In this document: positions 11,101 through 63,895 of the stretch, piece by piece | Numbering within the stretch: the first letter of the stretch is position 1 | Layout: each line of letters starts with the position of its first letter | From: Escherichia phage dw-ec | Length of the DNA: 64,000 nucleotides | Direction: 5' to 3' (one strand) | Sequence record: OL739525.1 | Translations under genes and position numbers: made by a program | Notes under the pieces: generated by a model | Seen by the model: the letters and a program-made list of their open reading frames with translations, nothing else | What the model was told of the DNA's origin: nothing | The model's database searches: none

Positions 11101-13698
11101 TCAATGACAGGATGCCCAAGAATTCCCCACATCATATCCAGCAGTAAGCTGAACATTAAGATTGTAAAATTCTCCAGCCTTAGTAACAGCTAAAGCAGCA
11201 AGTTCACCTGCCCGACTATAAGCTGTAAACCATCCACCTTTGGGAGATTCATGAATGTTAGCCCAAATTTGCCCTGTCTCTTTTTCCTTATTATGCTTCC
11301 ATTCTTCGACTTTAGCAAGGCATTCTTTATCAATTTTCTTTTGTTCTTCAGGATCGTCTACTTTCTTCCAACCTAATGATTCAGGTGAAAACCATTTGAA
11401 TTCTACAAGGTTACGAGAAACTTCAAGCTGGGCTTCATCGTGATATGCAATCATTTGTTGCACGAAGTCTTTATTCTTCCAGTCATCTTTAAAGAAGTCA
11501 ACACTTAGCCCTTCTTCTTCGATCATGTCATCATAAATAACCATTGCACGTTTAGCACAGATAACCCCACCGCTTTGGAACAGAGAGTTAAGAATCGCGT
11601 GAGCAGAACGAGTAGGAACCTTACGACCGTCAATACCCAAAACATATTGTTTACCAGTCTTAACCCAGAAATCATTTAAACGTTCTTTAAGACGCGCCAA
11701 TGGGAATGCAGCTTCCCAGAAAGCATCGAACACCAATTGACCTGTAAACTTGTCGCTACCAATTGTTTTAGCAACCTTGTCGGCTTGTGCACCATAGGTA
11801 ATACCATACTTAACAGATTTAGCAGGACTACGTTCAAATTTACGTCCAATAGTTTCAGTGATACGTTTTGCCATCATTGTGTGAACATCGTTAGGTTTCT
11901 CTAACAACAGAGCGTTACAATATTCGTGTGGCTCTGGCTCGTACCGCCAACAGTAGTGTGATTCAATTTTTGCTTCCAAAGAGTCGAAGTCGTAGCCAAT
12001 CTGGAAGTACTTAGGAACCTCTACACCAAACAAGTTACGCATCTCCCATCCAAACAAAGATGTGACACGAGGAATATTAGCTACAGACCTATGCTTCATA
12101 CGAGAGGTTGCAGCATCACATGTAGCTGCTGGGGTAGGAATACGACCATCCGCCCTTACTGCGGCTAAGAAACCTTTATCATATTCTTGATCTTCCTCAT
12201 CTTCTTCCCAATCAGCACCACCGCCTAAAATAGAGTTCCTACGATGCTTATACGTTAAGTATTCTACAATCTGTGTAGCATAAGGGAATTTCTCACCTAA
12301 AGCTTGCAGGTTAGGACAGATTTCTTTTTCCTGACCTTTGGTAAAACATGGGTTAGTCAATACTTTAAGACCGCGACCCTTACCTTTTGCTATACGCTCT
12401 TGAATCTTCCTCTCCAAGGTTTCCGGTGTGCACTCCAGATGATCACAACGATCCTGACAAAAATTAGAAGACAGAGTTTGCTCAACGTAAGCTCGAATAC
12501 CTTTCTGAAGTTCTTCCTCGCTCTTTTTAATCTTGGTGCCAGATTTAAGAGTCAAGTCTTTATCTTTATATTCAGACGGTACCCAACCTAATCCTACAAG
12601 CCAGTTTTTAATATGGGTAGTATCGTTCAATGTTGCAGGGATATTAGGATCACACAAAGGCTCATCTGCTGCAACTGGCAGTTTCCATTCTTTCCCCAAC
12701 ATCACTAACCACCAATCTCCATCCCTCTCTTCCAAATGACCATCATGTTTCTTAGCAAAATTGATCATATGGTTAGTTGGCTCTAAGTTCTTTTTAATTT
12801 GCAACTTAGGTGGAATAAAAGCCTTAAGATAACCTTTTGTTGCTGGTTTAGGTGGCAAAATAGGCTCAACGAGTAAACGAAGACGCTCCATTTCTGCATC
12901 CAAAAAAGCAAGGTTCTCTTCTGCTTGTTTCATGTTAAAAGCAAACCCACGGTGTTCCTGGCGTGTAATAATGTCTGCTACACGTTGTTCAAGTTCAAAT
13001 GGACCTTCCCATTTATCATAATCACCCCATTCTTCCATAAGGTAATTATATACGCTCGTATTGGCTTTGTTGTCATAGATACAGTAATAAAGCATATCCG
13101 CAGCAAAAGTCTTAAATCGATCTTCTTCTGGAATCTCTTTACGGAAATCTATTTTTACATCACCCCCTGCCTTTCGAGAAAGTGCTGCCAAGCTATGTCC
13201 TGATTTGCCCTCAATCTTTCGATCTGGGTTTAACACTTTACTCAAAATCAAGGAGTCAATAAGTTTTACCTTATTTTTGCCCCACGTATTATATTTAACA
13301 CTGTAATCTAAACCATAAAACAGTTTTGTAGCCAACCAGTCATAGTTGATACCGTTGTGAGCCACAGCTATTTCAACCAGATATTCAGGCTTATCTTTAA
13401 AATAACCTTCATGATTAATAAAGTCTGGGAAATCTTTTAGTTGAAAATGTGTGTAATCTTGCGCCACATACTCTTTAAGAACATATGTGTATTTACCATC
13501 TGACTCTTCATAAGAACGCCCATCAAAGATGTATTTAGGGCCATCGTGGAAAGCTACTATTTCTCCTGTTTCATGGTTCTCTAAGACAATACAGTGCATT
13601 TGAAATGTGTCTTTGAGACGATAAGGACTAGCTAAATAATCGATAGTGTCATTATTCAACAATCCGTTTGCTTCAATATCCCATGTAAACTTACTCAC
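11101..13698 (-). CDS. DNA polymerase, family A (T7 gene 5-like) with 3'-5' exonuclease domain
   Basis: 865 aa; N-terminus ...DIEANGLL and C-terminus ...NSWASCH parallel T7 DNA polymerase (DIEANALL ... NWAICH); GTG start overlapping upstream stop, AAGGAGG RBS. Confidence 0.9.
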   Translation of the reverse strand: MSKFTWDIEANGLLNNDTIDYLASPYRLKDTFQMHCIVLENHETGEIVAFHDGPKYIFDGRSYEESDGKYTYVLKEYVAQDYTHFQLKDFPDFINHEGYFKDKPEYLVEIAVAHNGINYDWLATKLFYGLDYSVKYNTWGKNKVKLIDSLILSKVLNPDRKIEGKSGHSLAALSRKAGGDVKIDFRKEIPEEDRFKTFAADMLYYCIYDNKANTSVYNYLMEEWGDYDKWEGPFELEQRVADIITRQEHRGFAFNMKQAEENLAFLDAEMERLRLLVEPILPPKPATKGYLKAFIPPKLQIKKNLEPTNHMINFAKKHDGHLEERDGDWWLVMLGKEWKLPVAADEPLCDPNIPATLNDTTHIKNWLVGLGWVPSEYKDKDLTLKSGTKIKKSEEELQKGIRAYVEQTLSSNFCQDRCDHLECTPETLERKIQERIAKGKGRGLKVLTNPCFTKGQEKEICPNLQALGEKFPYATQIVEYLTYKHRRNSILGGGADWEEDEEDQEYDKGFLAAVRADGRIPTPAATCDAATSRMKHRSVANIPRVTSLFGWEMRNLFGVEVPKYFQIGYDFDSLEAKIESHYCWRYEPEPHEYCNALLLEKPNDVHTMMAKRITETIGRKFERSPAKSVKYGITYGAQADKVAKTIGSDKFTGQLVFDAFWEAAFPLARLKERLNDFWVKTGKQYVLGIDGRKVPTRSAHAILNSLFQSGGVICAKRAMVIYDDMIEEEGLSVDFFKDDWKNKDFVQQMIAYHDEAQLEVSRNLVEFKWFSPESLGWKKVDDPEEQKKIDKECLAKVEEWKHNKEKETGQIWANIHESPKGGWFTAYSRAGELAALAVTKAGEFYNLNVQLTAGYDVGNSWASCH

Positions 13699-15000: not shown

Positions 15001-15027
15001 ATTTTTAATAAAAGGGCCGAAGCCCTT
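15001..15027 (-). terminator. rho-independent terminator
   Basis: AAGGGC-uucg-GCCCUU stem-loop (UUCG tetraloop) followed by U-rich tract on minus strand after primase-helicase stop. Confidence 0.65.
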
Positions 15028-16804
15028 AATAGTTGCTATCCGTAGGCAAATTAGCAGGATTGTTGAAATACTGCTCTTTGTCATGCAGAGTTGCAGTTCT
15101 AATGTCATAGTAAAACTGCCCTGCCGGACCAGTTTCCGAGAACTCACGGTTTTTTAGGATAAAGCAATGAGTCGTATTGCGTTCTACAGGGTCTTCAGCG
15201 GCTTTATCTCGTTCCAAAGCCAAGGTAATACCAGCACCTTTAGCCAAAAAACTACTACCCATTGCATCGTCCTCTGTTAAGTGTTCATTGCCACCATTAG
15301 CCGATTTCTTAACGTGTGAGATGACGATAATAGTTATAGCGTACTCTTTCATGATGCGCTTCAACCATGTTGCTAACTCTTCCTGGGCTTGAACATCCAT
15401 ACCAGAAAGCAAATCAGAATAAGGGTCGATAACAAGAATTGTTACTCCAAAATAGATGATCATCTCCAAAACTTTTTCTTTGATAGACTCCACATCTGCT
15501 CCACGATCATCACACACATAAAAACGTGGTGATCCATCTTCTCTTTCGTAAAAATCTAGGATTTTTTCTTTATTCTCTTCCAAGATTTGAAATTTCTCTT
15601 CCGGTGTTTTCCTGTGTAGAGGAATATGCAGGAACGAGGACAACAGGTTACGAGAATATTTCTTATAAGTTGCTTCCAAGGACAGAATACCCAAGGTATG
15701 TTCTGGGTGAGCAACAATAATATGTTTGGTGATCTCGTTCACCATCAAAGTTTTACCGATACTGGTCTTTGCCAGGATCACTGTAATCTCTTCCTCTACT
15801 AAACCACCACCCAGCATATTTGCAGCAACACGCATAAAAGGAGGCAAGGTAATCATCTTGGATTCCAAGCATTCTAATGCAGCTTCATACAAGACATTAG
15901 AAGCATAAACACCTGCTGGGGTGTATAGACGAGCACTCCAAAAAGCTTTTACGAAATCTTTTGCACGACCTTCTTCCAGATACTGATTGGCATCCTTAAG
16001 ATCCATCTGCATACGGTAGACTTTGTTACGGGGCAGCACCTTAACAATATTTTCAAATGCCTCATTACCTGCTTTGTCATTATCCATGCAAACAATAATC
16101 TTCTTAAATTTTTCAAAGAAAGGATATTGTGCCTGAACTTGTTTATACATACTGGTTTCACCAGTTGTGCCACTAACTACTGCTGGAAGTTCATATTTGT
16201 TGTCCAAGTTTTCAGACAACATTTGATAAGCTGCCAGAGCATCGTGTTCACCACCTGTAATTACCACAGTATGAGAACGGTCTGCAAAACGAATTTGTCC
16301 AAAAAGATCTACATCTTTACCTACTTGACCAATAGGTTTACTGAAATCTTTAGGATGGATACGACGCTTAAAACCAACCAATTCTTTACCGATGGTAGTT
16401 GGATATAAACAACTTTCTACTACCATCTGATCCCCTTCCTGACGGTATTCATAACGAACACCATAGAAAGATGAAACTTTTTCTTTAATGCCTCGATAAC
16501 CACGTGGGTTGGTTGATGTTTCTTGAACAATTTTACGATGAATCTGTTTATTAAATTCCGAACCCACAATCTCCTCCTCTTCTTCTAAAACTTCACCATT
16601 TTCTCGTAACCATTCTACGCTAGGAATAGTGTATTCACACGCAAAGCACTTAGCACCTTTATGCTCTCCATTAGAATCTAATCCATAAACCATCAGGTTA
16701 TTACGAGAGCGATCCTTGCCATTTTTCATGCAGCGCGGACAACCTGTATGCCCTTCCTTGCTAAGATCAACATCAAATCCATATTTAGTTATAATGTGCG
16801 ACAC
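15026..16804 (-). CDS. DNA primase/helicase (T7 gp4-like)
   Basis: 592 aa; N-terminal zinc-binding CPRC...CFAC, central TOPRIM-like region, C-terminal DnaB-family helicase with Walker A (AKTSIGKT); GTG start with AGGAGA RBS. Confidence 0.85.
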   Translation of the reverse strand: MSHIITKYGFDVDLSKEGHTGCPRCMKNGKDRSRNNLMVYGLDSNGEHKGAKCFACEYTIPSVEWLRENGEVLEEEEEIVGSEFNKQIHRKIVQETSTNPRGYRGIKEKVSSFYGVRYEYRQEGDQMVVESCLYPTTIGKELVGFKRRIHPKDFSKPIGQVGKDVDLFGQIRFADRSHTVVITGGEHDALAAYQMLSENLDNKYELPAVVSGTTGETSMYKQVQAQYPFFEKFKKIIVCMDNDKAGNEAFENIVKVLPRNKVYRMQMDLKDANQYLEEGRAKDFVKAFWSARLYTPAGVYASNVLYEAALECLESKMITLPPFMRVAANMLGGGLVEEEITVILAKTSIGKTLMVNEITKHIIVAHPEHTLGILSLEATYKKYSRNLLSSFLHIPLHRKTPEEKFQILEENKEKILDFYEREDGSPRFYVCDDRGADVESIKEKVLEMIIYFGVTILVIDPYSDLLSGMDVQAQEELATWLKRIMKEYAITIIVISHVKKSANGGNEHLTEDDAMGSSFLAKGAGITLALERDKAAEDPVERNTTHCFILKNREFSETGPAGQFYYDIRTATLHDKEQYFNNPANLPTDSNY

Positions 16805-49574: not shown

Positions 49575-49763
49575 ATGGCACGTTTAGCAGATCATGAAAT
49601 CTTTAAACCTATTCTGAACCATTATAATGAACTTAAAGCAGTGTTGGATTGTTATAAAGAGGATGAAGAACGCTTGGAAGTCAATCTTAAGATAGTTCTG
49701 ATGAAAGCTTTTCAAGACGGGCAAGCTGAAGTCTTAAGAGGTATGAAAAATGCGAATAACTGA
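49575..49763 (+). CDS. hypothetical protein
   Basis: ATG at 49575 with AAGGAGA RBS. Confidence 0.5.
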   Translation: MARLADHEIFKPILNHYNELKAVLDCYKEDEERLEVNLKIVLMKAFQDGQAEVLRGMKNANN

Positions 49764-50283
49764 TGAATATGTATTCTTCTTTTCACATAAAGATGTGTTT
49801 AGCAATTGGTACATTGCACCATTCACAGAGACGGAACCAGGGTACAGTGAGACTTTCTGTTGTGTAGAGCAATACATGATGTGGCGTAAGGCTTTGCTGT
49901 TCAAGGATCAGGTAATCGCAGCAGCTATCCTTGATCACTCAATGAAGCGAGACGACGAGAAGGGACAGGCATACTACAAGCGTATGGGTCGAGCGGTGTC
50001 TGGTTTTAATAATGACATGTGGGAAGAGTACCGAGAGCGTATCGTAATGCGAGGCTTATGCTTGAAGTATACACAGAACCCTGATCTTTACTCTGACTTG
50101 CGACTGTACCAATTCAAAACGTTCGTTGAGGCGAGTCCTTATGATAAGGTTTACGGAATTGGAATGGGTATGTACGAACCAGGGGTGCTTAATCCTGCCA
50201 ACTGGAAAGGGCAGAATCTTTTAGGTAAATATCATAATAAACTGATCGAAATACTTTTCCCAGACAAAATACCGCAAAGATGA
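49750..50283 (+). CDS. NADAR-domain protein (YbiA-like)
   Basis: 177 aa; FFFSHKDVFSNWY, CVEQYMMWRKALLF and KYTQNPDL..L segments fit the NADAR/DUF1768 fold family. Confidence 0.6.
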   Translation: MRITDEYVFFFSHKDVFSNWYIAPFTETEPGYSETFCCVEQYMMWRKALLFKDQVIAAAILDHSMKRDDEKGQAYYKRMGRAVSGFNNDMWEEYRERIVMRGLCLKYTQNPDLYSDLRLYQFKTFVEASPYDKVYGIGMGMYEPGVLNPANWKGQNLLGKYHNKLIEILFPDKIPQR

Positions 50284-50535
50284 TATTTGTGATATTTTAA
50301 CTTTTTTCATTTTTAGAACAAAGGTGTCACTTTGTAGCACAGAAATAAGGCTCCTACAGCACCGTAGAGAGCCTGTTATTTTGTCCTATACAAACCCTTA
50401 TCTTTTTCAGTTTGCATCACTAAGATTCGATCTAAGTGGGTTCCTGAAGGTCTACTAATAAGATTAAAGGTTATATCAAATTCCCACTATCCATTATCTC
50501 AAAAATCCCTCAAATTATTTAAACTTTTTAAGAAT

Positions 50536-50720
50536 TTACAAAAGTGAAAGTTGAAAACCAAAATTTAAAGTTTAGGAAAATTATCTTAAAATGTTAGATA
50601 CAAAACAAAACTCAAAAGTCAAGGAAAATTTTAAAAATTTTGCGCGCCCACAGTATTTAAAGTTTTTTTGCTTTTACAAAAATGAAAGTACAAAAGCAAA
50701 ATTTAAAGTTTACAAAAATT
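50536..50720. repeat. AT-rich direct repeats (two ~47-bp copies plus partial copies)
   Basis: 50536..50582 and 50674..50720 about 83% identical (TTACAAAA.TGAAAGT...AAAATTTAAAGTTTA..AAAATT); ATTTAAAGTTT occurs three times. Confidence 0.7.
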
Positions 50721-50731
50721 TTTATGCAGGT

Positions 50732-50752
50732 GAGAATGAGAAGAGTTCTCAT
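50732..50752. promoter_or_regulatory. palindromic operator-like site (ATGAGAA-gag-TTCTCAT)
   Basis: Perfect 7-bp inverted repeat; same half-site family as the Fur-box-like elements. Confidence 0.4.
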
Positions 50753-50762
50753 ATGGAAATGC

Positions 50763-50783
50763 AAATGATAATGATTCGCATTT
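50763..50783. promoter_or_regulatory. Fur-box-like element
   Basis: AAATGATAATGATTCGCATTT, partial match to GATAATGATAATCATTATC. Confidence 0.4.
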
Positions 50784-50820
50784 AAGTTTATAAATGAGAT
50801 TGATTCTTATTTAATAAGGT

Positions 50821-50850
50821 AAATGATAATCATTCTCATTTAGAGAATGA
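50821..50850. promoter_or_regulatory. Fur-box-like element with TCATTCTC-attta-GAGAATGA palindrome
   Basis: AATGATAATCATTCTC matches 15 of 16 positions of the Fur-box core AATGATAATCATTATC. Confidence 0.5.
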
Positions 50851-51098
50851 CGCGCAGGGGCGGTGTTTGTCTCGCGCTCCCGTGTCCCCTCGCCATGTAA
50901 TAAGAATAACAGATCCAGCCAGGAAAGCAAGCGATTATTTTATCTTTACATTTCTTTACAAATATATAGCGCCCAGCCTACCGGCGATCAACCTTCCAAC
51001 CAGCGCCCTGGTATGTTAGCCCCGCCTTTACGCCGTGGGGTGGCGCTTCCTCTTCTGTATGTAAAACAGTATAAGCCCGATCCCTGGGCTTGTCAAGA

Positions 51099-51365
51099 TT
51101 ATTTTTTGTTTTCTTGCCAGGATAGGACACCTAACCAAAAATACATATCGCCCCGCGCCCCTGGTGGTATCTTGCTTTCCCCGCCGCCACTGCAAGCCCA
51201 TAGATAACCATTTGCGAACGTATCAAAATGATCTATCTCTTCCACCTTATGATCGCCCAGGTTGAGAACGGTTTCAACCTTTAAGCCCGTTGCGCTTGCT
51301 ACCTGGTGCACCGTGCCGCCTTGCCAGCCCAATGAGTGCATAAGGTGTAATGTAGTAGTTGTCAT
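51099..51365 (-). CDS. hypothetical protein in GC-rich island
   Basis: 88 aa ORF with protein-like composition; surrounding 50860..51560 noticeably GC-richer than the rest of the window. Confidence 0.4.
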   Translation of the reverse strand: MTTTTLHLMHSLGWQGGTVHQVASATGLKVETVLNLGDHKVEEIDHFDTFANGYLWACSGGGESKIPPGARGDMYFWLGVLSWQENKK

Positions 51366-51474
51366 GGTGTCGCCCTTTCTTTGTTGTGCGCCCTGGTTGG
51401 CGCGGTAGAAAGATGATAGCCTTTTCCTTTATATATAGCAAGCAAAAAGAAAATAAAAAAGATTGAAAAAGTGG

Positions 51475-51503
51475 TTGACGTTCCTCACCTGGTAGCGTAG
51501 TAT
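51475..51503 (+). promoter_or_regulatory. sigma70-like promoter (TTGACG-17-TAGTAT)
   Basis: Upstream of 51639..51836. Confidence 0.4.
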
Positions 51504-51638
51504 TCATCTTGTCGAGGGGGGCGCGGCACAACGACAATAAAAAACAGGAGGGCGCAATGTAGGACGGGCAAAGGTGAGGATCTCCATAATCCACCGTCAA
51601 CCAACAAAAAACATCATTCATCACCTGGAGTTAAAATC

Positions 51639-63206: not shown

Positions 63207-63590
63207 ACACTTATTGCGCTGGCTTATTATTAGCATTATATGTAATTACCAAGATCATAACATTAGCGCAATAACAATAATCATTGTAATGGTTACAATA
63301 TGAAATCATTAGCAGGATGAATAATTGCACGTAGCAACATGAGCGAATAGCGACAGGTTGCATAGTGTGCACATAATAGAATAAAAGTCAATAATTTTGG
63401 GGGCGAAATGTTACCGCCACGGGCGGGAATGTTGAGCACTAAGAAAAGAGATAAACCTTAATCATGGGGGCGTAAATATCCGCAGGATTGCCAACGGCGA
63501 TCCGGTAGGATGTTGAGCATCTTCTCTTAAACGTAAATAAAATCAGAAAATTCTTGATTTATTCTGGTTTTTATGTTAATAAACGTTTAA

Positions 63591-63610
63591 ATAATAATCA
63601 TTCTCATATG
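63591..63610. promoter_or_regulatory. Fur-box-like element
   Basis: ATAATAATCATTCTCATATG; shares ATAATCATTCTCAT core with 50826..50839. Confidence 0.45.
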
Positions 63611-63766
63611 AATAATAGTCCGTCTGTCATGAGCGGCATTAGTTGACATTGTTCCGTCATATGATGAAGTTGCCAAACCATTGATAAATAAGCGTTTGTG
63701 TGATTTATAATCAAGTGGCCCACCTTGTCGCTATGTTGGCATAAGCCTTGCATAAGTCATTGAATA

Positions 63767-63789
63767 CGAATGATAATTATTCTCATTCG
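63767..63789. promoter_or_regulatory. Fur-box-like palindromic element
   Basis: CGAATGA-taattattc-TCATTCG. Confidence 0.45.
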
Positions 63790-63895
63790 CATGATATTTG
63801 GGAATTGTCGCTGCGTGGACCTGACGGCCCGAAAATTCGCGTTAGGTTAAACACCCAAGCAGACGCCGCAATATCAGCACCGACAGGAAACACAA

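Follow-up and report, generated by a model that had tools for sequence, protein, structure and literature searches.

In iteron origins of replication (lambda ori, P1 oriR, R6K, RK2, and pSC101 oriV), at least three direct repeats of 17–22 bp with an approximately two-turn spacing, in the same orientation and unique to the genome, lie beside or within an AT-rich minimum on bent DNA; the repeat sequence is lineage-specific, as in incompatibility-type initiator/iteron pairs. Transcription activates or primes the origins of lambda, T7, T4 (oriF/oriG), and ColE1, and T7-type replisomes start at origins that combine a promoter with AT-rich DNA. Repeat Region 3 of phage T5, a candidate injection-stop signal about 8% from the genome end, is a large untranslated region conserved across the phage group, with dense direct repeats (a 66-bp DRE), Fur-box-like palindromes, and paired DnaA boxes; it is part of a terminal repeat of 10 kb (Davison, 10.1101/866236). 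In the rV5-like myovirus phiTE, non-coding direct repeats form pseudo-ToxI, a head-to-tail 36-nt repeat that acts as RNA (Blower et al., 2012, PMC3475682).

The locus analyzed here is an AT-rich repeat array at positions 50511–50720 (+ strand) of the window, i.e., of the whole 64,000-nt stretch of Escherichia phage dw-ec (OL739525.1) under study. Like iteron origins, it consists of same-orientation, genome-unique direct repeats at an AT-rich minimum on bent DNA, with a lineage-specific repeat sequence; unlike them, it has composite units of approximately 65–75 bp, only two of them full copies, and lacks helical phasing, an adjacent initiator, DnaA and IHF sites, and plasmid similarity. With the T7 primary origin, T4 oriF/oriG, ColE1 RNA II, and lambda ori activation it shares a promoter directed into an AT-rich segment, a G-rich structured upstream transcript, and a T7-type replisome. 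It differs from these in that the promoter is of the host sigma-70 type and 340–550 bp off, with four Fur boxes in between; that its conserved lineage-specific repeats are needless in those origins; and that the RNA occurs also in phages without the array. The likeness to the T5 region extends to conservation, dense repeats, palindromes, and distance from the genome end, but not to DnaA boxes, to a location inside a long terminal repeat, or to sequence outside the Fur-box-like palindromes; moreover, the replication origins of T5 are reported near the genome centre. The phiTE repeats, although also non-coding and from a related phage, differ in genomic position and sequence, and the array has neither an RNA structure signal nor an Rfam match.

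The phAPEC8-, phi92-, and rV5-like myoviruses are often isolated and are used as therapeutic and biocontrol phages. The literature searched yielded no mapped replication origin for them, no description of the array, and nothing on the origin or the gap in rV5, phAPEC8, and PVP-SE1; the rV5 paper sought the origin by skew analysis only, and one genome map shows the gap simply as a "non-coding" box (PMC3606486). The array belongs with repeat-bearing origin or control regions, and is more telling as one part of a three-part cis module (a lineage-specific array, boxes for host Fur, and a structured RNA that has a promoter of its own) than alone.

Layout of the gap

The window comes from the genome of a myovirus of the phAPEC8-like group, genus Phapecoctavirus in the Stephanstirmvirinae. 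Matches to the 1357-bp gap are found in 147 phage records; in 65 of these they cover most of the gap, with 93–98% identity. The genes on both sides are on the + strand, and hence GC skew has no informative inflection at the gap. The left neighbours are an AAA ATPase of the Cdc48/Rix7 type, a CapR/GIY-YIG-like endonuclease, two small ORFs, and a NADAR (YbiA-like) protein, whose gene stops at 50283; to the right, from 51639, begins a long run of small, promoter-led, early-type genes, and the gap is at the head of an early-gene block of approximately 33 kb. The original prediction placed the repeats in a 1.3-kb non-coding gap. The extent of this gap (50284–51638) stands, but it is not wholly non-coding, as it holds a minus-strand ORF and an RNA gene; the ORF-free part is 50284–51098.

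At the left end of the gap, a hairpin with U-rich tails on both strands (50349–50373) folds with –19.6 kcal/mol on the + strand and –17.2 kcal/mol on the – strand. It is the terminator of the upstream + strand operon, being annotated as such in phAPEC8, and may also stop leftward transcription that crosses the array. The repeat array follows, and is adjoined on its right by four Fur-box-like palindromes with 29-bp spacing (50735–50842). Further right are a conserved GC-rich block (about 50850–51067) with a minus-strand structured RNA gene, recognized from alignments and covariation; a minus-strand sigma-70 promoter, TTGACA-17-TATACT (51096–51068, 11/12 match); a conserved minus-strand ORF of 88 aa (51099–51365); and a divergent promoter zone at the right end (51366–51638). 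Two short sequences recur in this part of the genome in both subfamilies: GATATTTG, in 2–4 copies directly after the upstream stop codon (window 50282–50305), and TATCTCAAA, in 2–4 copies left of the repeat array (window 50475–50505).

The 88-aa ORF belongs to phrog_19316, but has no Pfam or PDB match. Judged by eye, it contains an HTH-like stretch, GTVHQVASATGLKVETVLNL. Its Seunavirus counterpart is a 63-aa DUF7170 protein; Certrevirus genomes do not have the ORF, yet carry the repeat array. The NADAR gene (49750–50283) is 96% identical to that of the otherwise divergent phiWec181 and only 82–88% identical to those of close Phapecoctavirus relatives. The promoter zone shows an identity of 97% to phiWec181 and of 59–63% to three close relatives, which was noted as the reverse of the NADAR pattern; the opposite patterns point to recombination breakpoints flanking the conserved module, i.e., to mosaicism.

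Structure, physical properties and conservation of the array

Two direct repeats of 72 nt, unit 1 at 50511–50582 and unit 2 at 50649–50720, are identical at 59 of 72 positions (82%), with a start-to-start distance of 138 bp. They had been predicted as repeats of approximately 47 bp, 83% identical and 138 bp apart; the location and the distance are retained, while the length is corrected to 72 nt and the identity of the 47-nt portion (50536–50582 and 50674–50720) to 87% (41/47). Each unit is a composite of an A-box, TATTTAAAsTTTTT, a TTTACAAAArTGAAAGT box, and an A'-box, CAAAATTTAAAGTTTA. In unit 1 (+ strand) the A-box reads ATTATTTAAACTTTTT and is followed by TTTACAAAAGTGAAAGT; in unit 2 (+ strand) it reads AGTATTTAAAGTTTTT and is followed by TTTACAAAAATGAAAGT; the A'-box is the same in both. 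Unit 2 also contains a 10-nt inverted repeat, TTTTGCTTTT/AAAAGCAAAA, read from the sequence and seen in folds as well.

Partial copies with a recurring core, the other component of the prediction, are recovered by the repeat search: a 34-nt copy (50599–50632, + strand) between the units is 74% identical to the 3' part of units 1 and 2, and the core ATTTAAAGTTT occurs exactly three times in the window (50563, 50655, and 50701), always in the array and on one strand. A C variant, ATTTAAACTTT, starts at 50517, and the core motif has a 46/92/46-bp register (50518, 50564, 50656, and 50702). The middle segment as a whole is 68% identical to the units in a global alignment vs. 64 ± 5% in AT-rich shuffles, which is not significant; hence, only the 34-nt partial copy is claimed, and a full degenerate unit is rejected. 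Longer sub-motifs of the units (14–17 nt) are confined to the array in the 150.6-kb composite genome (positions 1–90 kb of Schickermooser plus the window). The best direct-repeat score is 34; when the 320-bp AT-rich segment was shuffled 300 times with its dinucleotide counts preserved, the score was 10.0 ± 1.4 (maximum 17; 0/300), so that AT-richness alone is an insufficient explanation. TRF calls no tandem array at the repeats, since the copies are not head-to-tail.

Several other identities of the array were considered and rejected. The units are not tandem sigma-70 promoters (the matches are 9/12 and not kept between genera), nor is the array coding, as the 64-aa ORF at 50591–50785 loses its frame in phAPEC8 and anhysbys through a deletion of 2 nt. 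ARAGORN finds no tRNA or tRNA-like element in it, there is no credible Rfam match to a known RNA family, and no similarity of the arrays to plasmid origins or to the E. coli chromosome was found.

GC content in the window is lowest in the array, at 18, 21.5, and 23.3% over 100, 200, and 300 bp, respectively, vs. a mean of 39.5%, and the array is also the lowest-GC 200 bp of the approximately 150-kb composite genome. At 200 bp its duplex is also the least stable, –224 vs. –258.7 ± 9.2 kcal/mol (nearest-neighbour, approximately +3.8 sd). The segment of 21.5% GC and low stability at 50512–50711 is a candidate DNA unwinding element and, as in iteron origins, coincides with the repeats. The most curved 120 bp of the window under the wedge model, 50442–50562, overlap the left edge of the array, with an end-to-end/contour ratio of 0.749 vs. 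a mean of 0.949 (sd 0.030); these values are approximate.

The original prediction named missing conservation of the repeats in related phages as an outcome that would speak against it; the repeats turn out to be conserved. In four Phapecoctavirus genomes the array is 98.6–100% identical, the best conserved segment of the neighbourhood (NADAR gene, 82–88%; left part of the gap, 94–97%; Fur boxes, 89–97.5%), and it is kept at 97.5–100% in about 64 records. On these alignments, the array is evidently under strong purifying selection. Its identity falls to 72% in phiWec181 and 62% in the Justusliebigvirus EmilieFrey, where the GC block retains 97 and 90%, respectively; near-invariance in the genus and such values beyond it indicate tight constraint within the genus and turnover between genera.

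In EmilieFrey, BME3, and Klebsiella phage phi1_175008, three A-box units with spacings of 67 and 75–76 bp lie directly left of the Fur boxes, so the 138-bp spacing in the window seems to span two periods, the copy in the middle having decayed. In Klebsiella phage 05F01, there are two A-box units, about 114 bp apart. Vequintavirinae carry at the homologous place at least three repeats of similar period with other cores: GG(G/T)TCTCGATCG...GATCGTATT in Seuna-, Certre-, Mydo-, and Avunavirus, and GAACTTGAGrGGTTTTTC in rV5-like and Erwinia phages. A fourth core type, GGTCGTAGGATTTTTTCG, is found in two metagenomic contigs. The repeat units often terminate in AAAAAATTTTT. Thus, there are at least four core types, each homogeneous within a genome. 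Such arrays are found at 17 of 28 IMG/VR loci that were anchored on the GC block; their periods are 63–74 bp (mostly 67) or 143–144 bp, and in 15 of the 17 loci one or more Fur boxes separate the array from the GC block. Direct-repeat periods across the two subfamilies are 63–76 bp (mostly 67) or doubled (138–144). The architecture conserved in Stephanstirmvirinae and Vequintavirinae thus comprises about three repeats of approximately 67 bp, Fur boxes, and an RNA gene with a sigma-70 promoter.

Paralogous units are 76–82% identical and orthologous ones 81–82% (window and phiWec181), and the duplication of the units predates the split between the window and phiWec181. Four sites have the same derived change in both phiWec181 copies, vs. 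about 0.4 expected under independence. Paralogues as similar as orthologues, together with the four shared changes, indicate concerted evolution of the units. As the cores vary by lineage even among phages of E. coli, while the Fur boxes and the RNA are constant, the binder is likely to be specific to the phage rather than to the host; the pattern fits co-evolution of the array sites with a phage-encoded DNA-binding protein. A separate observation concerns Dam sites. Vequintavirinae-type units contain two GATC sites each, about 22 nt apart, and the corresponding arrays have 6–10 GATC in about 200 bp, a density recalling oriC and P1 oriR; the array in the window has zero GATC sites.

Fur-box-like palindromes and the candidate RNA gene

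The palindromes at 50735–50842 are called by TRF with a period of 29 and are also found as direct and inverted repeats in the repeat search. The best Fur-like box matches GATAATGATAATCATTATC at 16 of 19 positions, and their constancy between lineages argues that the palindromes serve the host Fur. A weak + strand promoter (–10 nAGAAT) overlaps the last Fur box and is readable in all lineages. Similar Fur-box arrays are present in the T5-like Repeat Region 3 and in many Vequintavirinae.

The GC block shows 72–97% identity across both subfamilies and matches 233 phage records; its + strand ORF is frameshifted in Schickermooser. In a 30-sequence alignment, six of seven pairs of the RNA hairpin change on both sides, 90.7% of the hairpin cells are paired (28–48% in slid controls), and the covariation score is 0.196 vs. 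0.074 in shuffles (0/500). There are two further short helices, CGCC/GGCG and CCNN/N'N'GG, the latter seen as CCCC/GGGG, CCAA/TTGG, CCAG/CTGG, and CCAT/ATGG. The RNA core at about 50975–51050 forms the covarying hairpin and, through the two short helices, probably an H-type pseudoknot. No Rfam family matches it, and the GC block is a candidate novel phage ncRNA gene.

The promoter hexamers are kept in 30 distinct sequences, with invariant A at –11 and T at –7; the distance between promoter and RNA is fixed in all sequences, and the spacer varies in sequence, not in length. The fixed minus-strand promoter sets the strand of the RNA, which starts near 51060 and reads towards the Fur boxes and the array. 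The array lies 340–550 bp downstream of the promoter, with its nearest edge at 340 bp, and negative GC skew of the + strand over 50800–51300 makes the leftward transcript G-rich. The RNA gene is also present in Aeromonas myoviruses that have no array, which makes it an independent gene and means that the promoter and RNA are not an obligatory origin component. In the record OY978796.1 (Klebsiella Mydovirus), annotations of tRNA-Met and tRNA-Ile at 2362–2515 overlie Fur-box and GC-block sequence, apparently through misplaced coordinates.

Functional readings of the array

From the lineage-specific cores we infer that the array is bound by a sequence-specific, probably phage-encoded protein, which could be found by pull-down. 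Our tentative preference, which stops short of calling it probable, is that the array is the binding-site and unwinding part of a replication origin, possibly activated by the leftward promoter. The protein would occupy the A-box and A'-box (TATTTAAAsTTTTT and CAAAATTTAAAGTTTA) of two or three units and wrap or bend the DNA; the segment of approximately 21% GC would open, and the replisome would be loaded there. This replisome is of the T7 type, with a family-A polymerase (DNA_pol_A in 11101–13698, – strand) and a Toprim–DnaB primase–helicase (Toprim_2 and DnaB_C in 15026–16804, – strand). Transcription from 51096–51068 would pass the RNA gene and the Fur boxes before it enters the array, where it may activate or prime the opening, and Fur on the four boxes could gate this transcription. 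The replisome type and a promoter aimed at the AT-rich array are both counted for the origin, and both correspond to T7/T4-type origins, with the promoter farther away than in T7 or T4; this distance (340–550 bp) and the intervening Fur boxes count against it.

Of the originally predicted alternatives, an origin or an array of protein-binding sites, both are favoured by conservation, uniqueness, the GC and stability minimum, and the lineage-specific cores; the classical iteron geometry, however, is not found. Instead of at least three short repeats there are two 72-nt units and a 34-nt partial copy, and the 46- and 138-bp spacings are out of helical phase. None of the six matches to the DnaA box TTWTNCACA in the window, and none of the six to the IHF site WATCAANNNNTTR, falls in 50284–51638. 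Pfam, PHROGs, and PDB searches reveal no initiator (Rep) and no other recognizable DNA-binding protein among 10 neighbouring proteins, which include the ATPase, the endonuclease, the NADAR protein, and small unknowns; an initiator gene may lie farther away. The same domain searches give no support for any of the neighbouring proteins as initiator or binder.

A broader proposal takes the whole 0.8-kb ORF-free stretch as an iron-gated, transcription-activated origin module shared by Stephanstirmvirinae and Vequintavirinae. We regard this as improbable; if true, occupancy by host Fur would decide whether the leftward pseudoknotted RNA reaches and opens the initiator-binding array, and phage DNA replication would be coupled to the iron status of the host.

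The nearest rival to the origin is a regulatory nucleoprotein array, in which a phage regulator, possibly helped by nucleoid proteins, would use the repeats like an operator or enhancer, without controlling replication. It would govern the Fur-box/RNA module or a switch at the head of the early-gene block, and we consider it rather unlikely, yet deserving real weight. The array always adjoins the Fur boxes and the RNA gene, separates the preceding operon, with its terminator, from the first early genes, and lies on curved AT-rich DNA of the sort typically found ahead of regulated promoters; any specific binder would suit the lineage-specific cores and the concerted change, and the weak promoter overlapping the last Fur box is kept in all lineages. 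However, no conserved promoter in or beside the array offers an obvious target, the sigma-70-like matches within the units being lost between genera; the motif is absent from all other promoter regions of the genome, which means that there is no regulon; and so extreme a GC minimum is unnecessary for an operator array. Action at the RNA level is very unlikely. Here the array would be the U-rich 3' part of a leftward transcript of approximately 700 nt, from about 51060 to the hairpin at 50349–50373, with the repeats serving as a sponge or decoy or mimicking a repeated antitoxin RNA. The conserved promoter does point into the array, the next good terminator-like hairpin lies beyond it, and the 46-nt core register is within the size range of type III antitoxin repeats; a relative, phiTE, encodes a repeat RNA decoy (PMC3475682). 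But neither strand has excess structure (fold z = +0.64 and +1.58), the array matches no Rfam family, ToxI included, and instead of folded head-to-tail repeats of approximately 34–45 nt the copies are separated; Fur-box palindromes intervene between the RNA core and the array, and the phiTE locus has tRNA genes on one side and the terminase on the other, outside the homologous gap, so that homology to pseudo-ToxI is rejected.

A slim prospect is that the gap is the analogue of T5 Repeat Region 3, pausing or anchoring the entering DNA and marking the inner edge of a terminal segment of approximately 12–14 kb with small early genes. The gap is indeed a conserved untranslated region of repeats and palindromes at the inner edge of a segment of approximately 8%: in the 151-kb Schickermooser genome, the right physical end is 13.3–14.5 kb (about 9%) away; in BME3, the distance to the direct terminal repeat (DTR) is about 12 kb (about 8%); the intervening genes are all small and of the early type; and the first-step segment of T5 is 7.9% of the genome. 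Against this, the gap has no pairs of DnaA boxes, and the terminal repeat, 12–13 kb away, is only 329–342 bp long; the early-gene block runs on for 18 kb past the physical end on the same strand, and the end is therefore no border of a functional unit. Two-step injection of these phages was not found in the literature searched, and the function of the T5 element is itself a candidate one. The least probable of the readings is a remnant without function, left by a duplication that is decaying in an AT-rich spacer, or else a packaging (pac or terminus) signal. The decayed middle unit would agree with the former, and with the latter the fact that the other least stable 100-bp segment, also with Fur boxes, is at the terminal repeat; yet the array is conserved above the neighbouring genes (98.6–100%), its architecture is kept across two subfamilies, about 13 kb separate it from the mapped physical ends, and the DTR matches the inverted A-box only marginally (E = 0.18). 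Some probability is reserved for functions that we have not thought of.

With the replication origin as the preferred reading, the three-part module is a testable candidate origin and control region, and could serve as an engineering handle for replicon rescue and for safe insertion sites.

The position of the physical ends was taken from two relatives, Schickermooser, with a DTR of 329 bp (PMC6563267), and BME3, whose DTR was defined by PhageTerm (PMC12210895). The Schickermooser DTR maps to window positions 63510–63844, about 13 kb off the array, which rules out the array as the physical genome end; the start of the ETEC-TG record 36 nt before the array is no such end either, as that record is circular with an arbitrary start. 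The A-box copy in the terminal repeat, marginal as it is, was discarded also for overlapping a Fur box. The terminal repeat homologue at 63510–63844 contains the second-lowest-GC 100 bp in the window and its least stable 100-bp duplex. Fur-box-like palindromes are enriched in the window (12 sites at 14/19 or better vs. 2.5 expected) and cluster in the gap and in or near the terminal repeat (62760, 63270, 63587, and 63766); in BME3, the annotated DTR begins, on the reverse strand, with a 17/19 Fur box.
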